Source: Vicugna vicugna
Taxonomy: Eukaryota
Reading direction: 5' to 3'
Assembly: GCA_013265495.1 (NCBI GenBank)
Contig: MU057577.1
Location: 7,692-47,967 of the forward strand
Length of the DNA: 40,276 nt
Positions 3,051-5,157 of this stretch are shown one piece after another. Both the position numbers and the translations under genes were made by a program. The notes below the pieces were generated by a model. That model was not told the origin of the DNA. It saw only the letters and a list, made by a program, of their open reading frames with translations, and did not search any database. The number at the start of each line of letters is the position of its first letter. Positions within the stretch are counted from its first letter, which is position 1.

Positions 3051-3204
3051 GCCCACTCCCAAGTGGACAGCGGAGAAGGAGGCTGGTTTTGAAGCCCAGC
3101 AGAAGGACGCTCTGCAAGCCCTCTTTCAACAGAACCCCTACCCTGTCATCATGGCCCGAGAAAGCCTGGCCCGAGACCTGGGCATTCCCGAAAGCAGAAT
3201 TCAG
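3051..3204 (+). pseudogene. DUXC: DUXC-like exon 2 (homeodomain 1 up to helix 3), 1-nt deletion at 3100/3101
   Basis: Acceptor ccccatcttgcctttggcag|3051 and donor CAG|gtaaat at 3204/3205. One frame gives PLPSGQRRRRLVLKPS; after AGC^AGAAG another frame gives KDALQALFQQNPYPVIMARESLARDLGIPESRIQ. The exon is 154 nt where 155 keeps frame. Confidence 0.9.
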
Positions 3205-3904
3205 GTAAATCTCAGTCTCTGAATTCCTCCTCTCTCGGGGTCCGTGTCCGGACACCCCCCACCCCGGCCCGAGCCGTATGGAGTCCCACTTCCAGATCGG
3301 GAAGCTGTCTGCCGAGGCTTAGCCTGGCTTTTTCTCTCGTGCATTGGGAGGGACCGAAAGATAAGCCAGCCTGCATCAAGGAAAAGGGGAGTCCTCTAAT
3401 GAGCGTCTGTGCTGAAGGGTTTGTACGTGGCTTCCGAGCCCAATATGCAATTGGCTACAGACACTTTGTGGAGGGCACGCTAGGGAGAGGACCCGTCTCC
3501 TCCCCTTTGTGCTCCTGGTCTGGGTGCTTGAGGCAAGCCTGGACTCCACTCCCGAGAAGGAATGGCTGTCCCTTGGGAGAACAGGGCCAGGGGGAGCTGA
3601 GTGGCCCTGGGTCCTATGCCAACGGGTGCTCAGGAGTCCATGTCCAGGGAACGAGGGTGCGTGAGGCTGCTTGTGCCACGGAGTCCGGTCCTTTGTGGCT
3701 CACCTCCGAGGCACTAAAGTGCTCAAGTCGTCCTGTCTGGTCAGCCAGGAGAGGAGTCCTGAAAGGGGAGAACCGCAGGAGCAGGAGCACAGTGCCTGCG
3801 ACATTTCAAGGGGCACTAACACGCGCAGGCTTCCCTTACTGAACTGTCTGGCAGGTTCAACAAACTGCCCACCCAGCCCCATCAGAGATGCCTAAATGCA
3901 AACA

Positions 3905-4100
3905 CACATGCCCACACCCTCACCGACACCCATACCTACCCCGATGGCCACACCTTCACCAACCCCAACCACAACCCCTGCCACCCGGCCCTCCCGAAAT
4001 CCTCAGCCGACCTCACCCGACCTTACTCCACTGCACCCTACCCTTCTCCACGCCACTCCACTCCACTCCACTTCACTCATTCCACACCTAACTCTGCACT
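3905..4100. repeat. Degenerate C/A-rich hexamer array grading into (CCACT)n
   Basis: CCCACA CCCTCA CCGACA CCCATA ... followed by ccactccactccactccact. Confidence 0.7.
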
Positions 4101-4419
4101 TGTTTCTTGGGGAACGAGGAAGGCAACATGTGGCTTCACAGTTGAAGACAGTGACACCGATTTCAAAGGTGGGGATCGGGTACCTAAGAGCCTCCAGACC
4201 TGGAAGTGGCAGGACCTTGTGCTCCTAAGAGCTCCCTGGCAAGGAGTCACTTCCAGGCAGCATGGGGTTTTTAGGAGGTCGCCAGCGTTCAGTGAATTTT
4301 GGACAAGAGCACTCACCTATGCATGGTGTGTTAGAAAAGGGTGCTGTCCATGGGGCTAGAAAGGAGAACAGAGGAACATGCCTTGGGCACTGAGCATGGC
4401 CAAAAAGAGGCACAAAGAC

Positions 4420-4710
4420 TCAGAGGGAGCAAGTGAGAGAAATAAGAGAGAGAAATGGACACAGGGACAGAGACAGGGACTGAGGGAAAGGAAAAGAGCA
4501 ACAGGCAGAAACAGGTAGACGGACAGAATTGGAGAGTGAGACTACCAGGCCAACAGGGACCGTGGCAGGTTTGACAAGAATGGAAAATTTCAAAAGAGAC
4601 AGAGAGCTAACCAGAGGGAGAAAGAAACGGAGAGAGAGAGAGATGATCAGAGAGAGTGGGTCGGGGGAGGAAATGAGGGAAAGTGAGAGGAGGAGGAGAG
4701 AGAGAGAATA
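4420..4710. repeat. GA-rich low-complexity tract in DUXC intron 2
   Basis: Purine-rich runs such as gagagagaaa and ggagagagagagagatg. Confidence 0.75.
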
Positions 4711-5051
4711 TTAGCAAGCTCTTTCAGACTGAATTTGGGAAAAGAAACATTGTCTCCTGCCTCACGGGTTTTAGTCTTTGGATTCCAGAGGGAGGATGGC
4801 AGGGGAAATGCTGATTTTCTTCCGTGCGGATTGTGTTTTTTGGAATCCTGTGCAGTTCTTCCGAGGTGAAAGCCATAATCTGTGGCAAGTTCAGTCCCTT
4901 TGGGGGCTAAATCCTTCCCCTGGGGGCACATGGAATCTACAGTTTGTCCATTCCTTGGCTTGTCTGCATGTTCTGTTGTGAATCACTGTGATAGCTCATG
5001 AGATCTATCCCTAAGCATTTGAGTGACAAGGGGTTTTCTCCTTCTACTTAG

Positions 5052-5157
5052 GGTTGGTTCCAAAACCAACGAAGAAGAAGCCTAAGGCATAGCCGACCGC
5101 CATCGGAGAACATCTTACCAGACTGGCAATCGCATCATGTGCACGACCCTGAGTTTG
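5052..5157 (+). pseudogene. DUXC: DUXC-like exon 3 (recognition helix WFQNQR plus linker)
   Basis: Acceptor ttttctccttctacttag|5052. Open translation GWFQNQRRRSLRHSRPPSENILPDWQSHHVHDPEF with the usual V before WFQN replaced by G. Putative phase-1 donor G|gtaaca at 5157/5158. Confidence 0.85.

Follow-up and report, generated by a model that had tools for sequence, protein, structure and literature searches.

The exon pair and its gene structure

The DNA analyzed here, referred to throughout as the window, is a stretch of 40,276 nt from Vicugna vicugna (C433:7692-47967) in a 2.03-Gb assembly of 12405 contigs. Its positions 3051-5153 hold what is, as judged from the sequence, the homeodomain 1 (HD1) of DUXC, the intron-containing, multi-copy double-homeobox gene of Laurasiatheria, split between two exons (Table 1). 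Translation from the frame start at 3041 yields ...GQRRRRLVLKPS, and the frame start at 3040 yields QKDALQALFQQNPYPVIMARESLARDLGIPESRIQ up to the donor CAG/gtaaat at 3204. After cttag/ at 5051, the translation of the second exon of the pair is GWFQNQRRRSLRHSR. All three splice sites are canonical, namely the acceptor ttggcag/GC at 3051, the donor at 3204, and the acceptor at 5052. The Pfam Homeodomain profile matches the first of these exons, exon 2, with 36 bits (cut-off 22.9; E = 6.3e-9) over profile positions 7-45 of 57; exon 2, therefore, ends at homeodomain position 46, and the WFQN helix lies in the next exon.

An initial annotation, made from the letters of the window alone, had proposed that two exons with canonical splice sites encode a DUX homeodomain 1, and translation, Pfam search, and splice-site inspection agree with it to the exact coordinate. 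The exon pair of its gene structure stands and can now be completed, as the pair corresponds to exons 2 and 3 of a five-exon gene whose small ATG exon, at 1118, is itself broken.

Table 1. Features of the window (position 1 is its first nucleotide)
Feature	Position	Strand	Description
Intron 1 start with local tandem duplication	1019-1480 (blocks 1019-1237 and 1365-1480)	+	Two window blocks match one block in C6377 and C7807
Exon 1 remnant	1118-1126	+	ATG directly at donor gtaagt; 22 nt (codons 2-8 and the split base) deleted relative to C6377 and C7807
Exon 2	3051-3204	+	HD1 N-terminal arm and helices 1-2, to position 46; 1-nt deletion at 3100/3101; private R3L, L16P, G33V, K35M
Intron 2	3205-5051	+	gt...ag, at homeodomain position 46/47; collinear with six paralogs at 88-93% identity
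Exon 3, truncated	5052-5153	+	HD1 recognition helix GWFQNQRRR and linker; stops at the deletion junction, own end and donor lost
Deletion junction	5148-5153	+	CCTGAG microhomology; found in exon 3 (as CCTCAG in the long copies) and, on C2946, immediately ahead of block D
Block D	5154-15094	+	Low-copy flanking sequence joined directly to exon 3; on C2946 about 7.4 kb farther downstream, with exon 4, intron 3, and block M in between
LINE-1 fragments	16550-19756	+	Reverse transcriptase 16550-16846 (RVT_1, 30.6 bits); ORF1 dsRBD 19475-19756 (Tnp_22_dsRBD, 26.9 bits)
Block G, GC-rich repeat	20800-22992	+	Paralog of C433:2301-4506 (86%); adjoins the intron-3 fragment
Second DUXC remnant	22993-23419	+	Intron-3 fragment to 23408; 11-nt exon-5 stub 23409-23419 (start of the recognition helix of homeodomain 2); then break into block M
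Block M and second block D	23420-39855	+	M to about 29514; D 29601-39855; collinear with C2946:4269-19585

Assignment to DUXC

The nearest relatives of the exon pair lie in the clade of DUXC, DUX4, and Dux. Among solved structures, six DUX4 chains give the best matches (E = 7e-16 to 1e-15), followed by the CRX family at 1.4e-5, and exon 2 scores higher against HD1 of DUX4 (32.8 bits) than against its homeodomain 2 (HD2; 26.0 bits). Like the Pfam score, these matches greatly exceed what chance would give. The intact form of the exon in a paralog (P0004) matches 137 database proteins at E <= 0.001. Identity is highest, at 94-98%, with dromedary proteins that bear the name 'double homeobox protein 4-like protein 4', after which come DUX4-like and DUX4C-like proteins of sheep, reindeer, goat, cattle, whale, seal, and dog. 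These nearest proteins, from camel, ruminants, cetaceans, and carnivores, uphold the earlier assignment to a DUXC-type gene. In tblastn alignments, exons 2 and 3 of the window fall on residues 10-61 and 62-94 of the dromedary protein P0013, with identities of 71% and 82%, while the paralog consensus reaches up to 98%; the identity of the window is 71% to HD1 of P0013 and 38% to its HD2.

DUXC is described as having five exons, with introns within both homeoboxes (PMC13558733), and the gene model that we derived from the dromedary proteins P0013 and P0014 (443 aa) has the same form. Exon 1 is an eight-residue ATG exon, exon 2 holds the first part of HD1, and exon 3 holds the second part of HD1 and the linker, ending ...HEPQALTQ. 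Exon 4 contains the first part of HD2, and exon 5 contains the second part of HD2 and a long C-terminal part ending LLDELL...EFQALLDML. The same structure can be traced in the vicuña family, in which the HD1 intron follows ...SRIQ, an exon 1 homolog lies at 1118 of the window, and the HD2 intron is visible in the paralogs. The window copy does not have two homeodomains, and it has no C-terminal activation domain; paralogs on C2946, C6377, and C11156 carry both homeodomains, and the C-terminal domain can be read at C433:5460-5765 and on C7807, C1482, and C6377.

Automatic names such as 'double homeobox protein A-like' and 'B-like' on some of the database matches, and matches of exon 2 alone to the homeodomains of CRX, OTX2, and PAX6 (E = 1e-5 to 1e-4), might suggest that the pair belongs instead to another paired-like homeobox family, be it DUXA, DUXB, or an unrelated PRD-class gene. 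However, the match to the DUX4 chains is better than that to all other families by ten orders of magnitude. Moreover, paralogs with 87-97% DNA identity share their contigs with HD2 and with a DUX4-type C-terminal domain, which DUXA and DUXB lack in the account given in PMC13558733. We consider membership in another family extremely improbable.

Lesions of the window copy

The 1-nt deletion in exon 2 that had been reported earlier is real in this assembly and was exactly placed. The window reads CAG-CAG where all seven aligned paralogs (7 of the 11 non-self matches) read CAG-T-CAG, and the extra T is present in each of the 11 non-window exon-2 copies that were extracted, in keeping with the earlier suggestion that paralogs might be free of the frameshift. 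The further suggestion that an in-frame ATG at 3151 could start a peptide of helices 2-3 did not hold up, as the Lys-to-Met change there is private to the window and the codon is AAG in 11/11 paralogs. Indeed, both the Val of YPVI and the Met of IMARE in the window are private changes, from Gly and Lys, respectively.

Exon 1 is damaged as well. Its intact form, seen on C6377 and C7807, consists of ATG and 22 nt followed by gtaagt and matches the first 8 residues of P0013 and P0014. A search for the ATG exon with at most two substitutions returned nothing in 14 sequences, and a relaxed search (at most four substitutions and a GT donor) found the exon on C6377 and C7807, through which the remnant in the window was then recognized. 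The tandem duplication next to it is private to the window copy among the copies compared.

Relative to the family consensus, the window copy shows no synonymous and four non-synonymous changes in exon 2, and again none and four in exon 3. A ninth change, beyond the eight counted, affects the first codon of exon 3, which specifies G in the window and V in the paralogs. The loss of 22 nt from exon 1 and of 1 nt from exon 2, the 3' truncation, and the count of 0 synonymous versus 8 non-synonymous changes are the marks of an unprocessed (duplicated) pseudogene.

A start at the in-frame ATG at 2807 was considered and rejected, both because in 8 species the DUXC protein starts some 8 residues ahead of HD1 and because the frame is closed on C2946, C8117, and C6377. 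Some 80 open codons (2807-3050) run into exon 2, the dromedary prediction P0019 uses the homologous start, and the frame is open in several copies. This open frame probably reflects the chance openness of GC-rich DNA.

Deletion junction and loss of homeodomain 2

Homology to the long copies stops within exon 3, at 5153, and is followed by sequence equivalent to C2946:10487 onward, which on C2946 comes after exon 4, intron 3, and the 6-kb block M. In a three-way comparison, the long form (C6377) reads ...GAGCCTCAG, then GCTCTGACTCAAG, then gtgagt; the sequence before block D on C2946 reads ...GGACCTGAG, then TTTGGTAAC; and the short form, in the window, reads ...CCTGAG, then TTTGGTAAC. This comparison indicates that HD2 and the activation domain were lost from the copy through a deletion of about 7.4 kb at a microhomology of 6 nt. 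A 261-nt probe across the junction has 22 matches in the genome, of which six span the junction (on C433, C2877, C6667, C7807, C8528, and C1218), four cover exon 3 only (on C6377, C294, C11156, and C1482), and 12 cover block D only. As the junction is common to six contigs, a single event must have been copied at least five times.

The earlier report of no HD2 or acidic C-terminal exon in the remainder of the window was confirmed by two approaches. In a tblastn search, the 443-aa dromedary DUXC-type protein matched the window only at exons 2 and 3. In addition, eight DUXC proteins were used to build profile hidden Markov models for HD1, HD2, and the C-terminal domain; run over all six-frame segments of the window, these matched only at 2896-3219, 2741-3205, and 5052-5264. 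The HD2 profile produced nothing in the window beyond a cross-match to exon 2, and the best E-value of the C-terminal domain profile there was 1.8. It had also been considered that HD2 exons might be hidden in assembly gaps. This explanation was rejected, as the expected place of exon 4, about 0.8 kb after exon 3, is continuous sequence without N and is collinear with block D of five other contigs. HD2 is thus missing because of a defined deletion and not because of gaps.

Assembly quality and public DNA contigs

The state of the assembly raises the question of whether the gene could be intact in the animal, with the frameshift, the loss of exon 1, and the missing HD2 all arising because short-read assembly had collapsed a repeat array or joined it wrongly. 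The assembly is certainly fragmented into many contigs, with four runs of N in the window and many copies of the family on contigs of 0.9-5 kb. To this can be added the public contigs from three DNA runs (X1, X2, and X11), which represent three organisms and were compared over positions 2900-5300 of the window. These are only 100-320 nt long, they have word depths of 400-2100 per contig versus 6-24 for rare pieces, and their consensus carries the intact frame: contigs of X2 and X11 have the extra T (X1 is uncovered at 3099), and all three runs have G3146 and A3152, as in the intact consensus.

Several features of the data are nevertheless difficult to reconcile with an artefact. The junction of exon 3 and block D is present in six separately assembled contigs, with 8-13% divergence between their flanks, and it is bridged by a contig of another data set (X1 record 8, positions 5069-5198, depth 24). 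The uninterrupted sequence at the expected place of exon 4 is a further point against it. Finally, the window differs from its paralogs by many substitutions, so its pseudogene status does not rest on one base. We regard an assembly artefact as improbable, and clearly so.

The word depth in the public contigs is about 100-fold above that of the rare pieces, which suggests, as a rough estimate, that the HD1 segment has a copy number in the region of 100. This depth, which extends across the HD1 exons and the intron, implies that copies with HD1 greatly outnumber the 12 that are assembled or the 4 complete DUXC genes reported in dromedary. The one RNA-labelled run, X24 (targeted-capture single-cell), had 0 matching reads, an outcome that has no bearing on expression.

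The truncated copies as a possible gene type

The sharing of the junction by six contigs also invites a functional explanation, namely that the short unit is a working type of gene. Exons 1-3 would then encode some 100 residues that include a single homeodomain and lack an activation domain, closing a few codons past the junction; such a product could compete with full-length DUXC for DNA sites, and the window would be a recently broken member. The reading frame does close 0-6 codons from the junction in 3/6 copies (C8528, C7807, and C2877, the last at the junction itself), exon 2 is better conserved than the intron in one subgroup of copies, and the frameshift is private to the window. Furthermore, antagonism among members of the DUX family and a single-homeodomain ancestor are described in PMC13558733, citing PMC10514451.

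The state of the copies themselves argues against such a gene. Five of the six short copies have lost a splice site or the recognition-helix Asn, or carry a stop inside the homeodomain or a frameshift. In addition to the window, with its frameshift and gutted exon 1, these are C2877 (exon-2 donor GT>TT), C7807 (exon-3 acceptor AG>TG and 12 non-synonymous changes in exon 2), C1218 (W48>stop), and C8528 (N51>I, the conserved Asn of the recognition helix). No copy in which all three exons are assembled is intact, and exon 1 is present on the contig only in the window and C7807.

The substitutions likewise look neutral. Relative to the consensus, non-synonymous and synonymous changes in the short copies stand at 54:10 overall (21:4 in exon 2 and 33:6 in exon 3), at or above the neutral expectation of 75% non-synonymous in exon 2 and 79% in exon 3, although the observed counts share ancestry and are not independent. 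In pooled pairwise comparisons, exon 2 diverges by 7.0%, the intron by 8.6%, and exon 3, with the recognition helix, by 10.8%, which is more than the intron. The idea put forward in the initial annotation that the family could encode HD1-only proteins is, thus, not borne out by these copies.

An HD1-only protein is unlikely. We also give very little credence to the broader proposal that the HD1-only short unit is a camelid-specific, amplified type of gene that damps full-length DUXC at genome activation and has intact members in unassembled parts of the genome. If it were true, an HD1-only product would act as a brake on full-length DUXC when the embryonic genome is activated.

Paralogs elsewhere in the genome

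Exon 2 occurs at 12 places in the genome including the window, the 11 further matches having 85-97% identity. Exon 4, with the first part of HD2, was found at 8 places by tblastn and DNA searches, and exon 5 has 18 matches. On C6377 the first part of HD2 lies 0.8 kb after exon 3, and it is also present on C2946. On C433, C7807, C6377, C8117, and C1482, exons 1-3 come after an exon 5 that has their orientation. The family is, thus, multi-copy, and a regular tandem array is assembled nowhere in these fragmented contigs. The copy counts and the shared junction bear out the earlier view of the window copy as a truncated unit of a multi-copy family that assembles poorly.

Two further loci, C10383:849225-850696 (L023) and C2459:34442-36057 (L024), retain exon 4 and exon 5, interrupted by several stops, and lack HD1; their DNA identity is 76-86%. 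Both lie within large contigs (0.88 and 1.4 Mb) and not on the small repeat contigs, and they are old, dead, dispersed DUXC fragments.

Surroundings of the exon pair

About 5 kb upstream of the window start, the same contig carries an exon 5 in the same orientation (L013, C433:4885-5762). This exon holds the second part of HD2 as well as the activation domain, is interrupted by a single frameshift and a single in-frame stop, and, instead of exon 4, has an intron-3 fragment and block G in front of it. This arrangement of block G and intron-3 fragment recurs inside the window at 20800-23408, and C7807 repeats the large-scale order of C433.

Block G measures about 2.2 kb with a GC content of 58-62%, and it has 54 matches in the genome, many of them at 81-94% on DUXC-bearing contigs and, on large contigs, older ones at about 70%. 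Block G is probably an unclassified repeat that moves together with DUXC fragments. Block M is low-copy and family-associated, with 28 genome matches. The junction between the exon-5 stub and block M is also found on C2946, C9332, C7807, C4098, and others, and the breakpoint lies 11-13 nt into exon 5 both in the C2946 type and at 23409-23419 of the window. A Pfam search of 35 long open reading frames in blocks U, D, X, G, and M recovered only the two LINE-1 pieces, and the long frames of block G, on both strands, matched no family. The order of the two LINE-1 pieces implies two separate insertions. Taken together, the region is a mosaic of duplicated array-edge fragments.

Discussion

Our analysis leads us to conclude, with considerable confidence, that positions 3051-5153 of the window are a dead, 3'-truncated DUXC paralog that keeps HD1 only, a pseudogene fragment in duplicated DNA. 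As a gene, this copy most likely does nothing.

The features of the region can be accommodated by a simple order of events. First, in a unit at the edge of a DUXC array, blocks M and D would have replaced most of exon 5, as on C2946. A deletion of about 7.4 kb, from CCTCAG in exon 3 to CCTGAG before block D, would then have removed everything from the end of exon 3 through block M, exon 4 and intron 3 included. The resulting short unit may subsequently have been copied, together with its surroundings, to at least six places by segmental duplication. Finally, the window copy would have decayed further by losing 22 nt of exon 1 and 1 nt of exon 2 and by gathering non-synonymous changes only, including one at the first residue of the recognition-helix exon.

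A number of observations weigh against parts of this reading. The size of about 7.4 kb for the deletion rests on C2946, whose exon 3 is hidden by a gap of 396 N. Neither the 1-nt deletion nor the private substitutions of the window were seen in the public contigs of X1, X2, and X11, and contigs of this kind drop rare variants; the exact copy in the window is, thus, without independent confirmation from them. Among the short copies, the only lesion of C6667 is a stop just after the homeodomain, its exon 2 not being assembled. Lastly, within the subgroup of the window, C2877, C8528, C2946, and C1218, exon 2 differs at 36 of 1546 sites as compared with about 6.6% in the intron, in pairs that are not independent. 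This pattern indicates either past constraint or gene conversion from working units for part of the history of these copies.

Decayed units of this kind are not without precedent. DUXC arrays with defective and partial copies are among the arrays covered by PMC3004920, and defective or partial units are noted for dolphin, megabat, sloth, and cattle (PMC3004920; PMC13558733; bioRxiv 10.64898/2026.03.05.709741). Incomplete units are described on either side of the bovine array, and in the distal unit exon 5 is a variant (bioRxiv 10.64898/2026.03.05.709741). In dromedary, DUXC is reported as an array of three units and one more copy, partial copies having been left out by the authors' pipeline (PMC13558733). 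The window copy is, in this respect, an ordinary decayed member of a known multi-copy family of embryonic gene switches, found in hoofed mammals and carnivores and already annotated among camel proteins. By itself it is of little consequence, given how well defective and partial units beside DUXC and DUX4 arrays are described.

It does show that an unannotated, split homeobox exon pair with a single-base frameshift can be found from raw sequence alone. In addition, the CCTGAG junction at 5148-5153 and the exon-5 stub junction at 23419/23420 offer markers with which truncated and full units can be counted. The 12 assembled copies and the 4 complete dromedary genes, set against the high word depth, suggest that most camelid DUXC-related sequence is still unassembled, and this sequence is relevant to studies of genome activation in camelids.

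Among known systems, sDUX, the single-homeobox ancestor of the DUX genes, resembles the window copy in having one DUX-type homeodomain. As portrayed in PMC3004920 and PMC13558733, however, it is an intact gene of non-placental vertebrates with a C-terminal activation region of its own, whereas the window copy is secondarily truncated and has neither an activation domain nor an open frame. Human DUX4c and the dispersed partial D4Z4-like units with interrupted DUX4 reading frames offer another parallel, as they too are incomplete copies of an array gene in duplicated regions beside the main array (PMC13558733). They differ in being, by that account, intronless retrogene copies with both homeodomains or parts of them, while the window copy contains an intron and HD1 only.

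The edge units of the bovine array are a closer likeness, since there, too, a truncated unit is joined to non-array sequence; in the distal cattle unit it is the 3' part of exon 5 that is given as variant (bioRxiv 10.64898/2026.03.05.709741), and the C2946 type and the window break 11-13 nt into exon 5. Unlike the situation outlined for cattle, a second, internal deletion appears to have removed HD2 here, and the truncated unit would then have been duplicated to at least six contigs; in this fragmented assembly, moreover, its position at the edge of an array is itself our inference. The closest counterpart is DUXC itself, which occurs in Xenarthra as well as in Laurasiatheria and is represented here by camel P0013 and P0014. 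Relative to these, the window copy has neither exon 4 nor exon 5, its exon 3 is cut short, it is frameshifted, with a gutted exon 1, and it is unable to encode a double-homeodomain activator. It nevertheless resembles them in the sequence of exons 2 and 3, in having an intron at homeodomain position 46/47 and a short upstream ATG exon, and in its multi-copy organization, and the HD2 and C-terminal domain of camel DUXC are carried by its paralogs.

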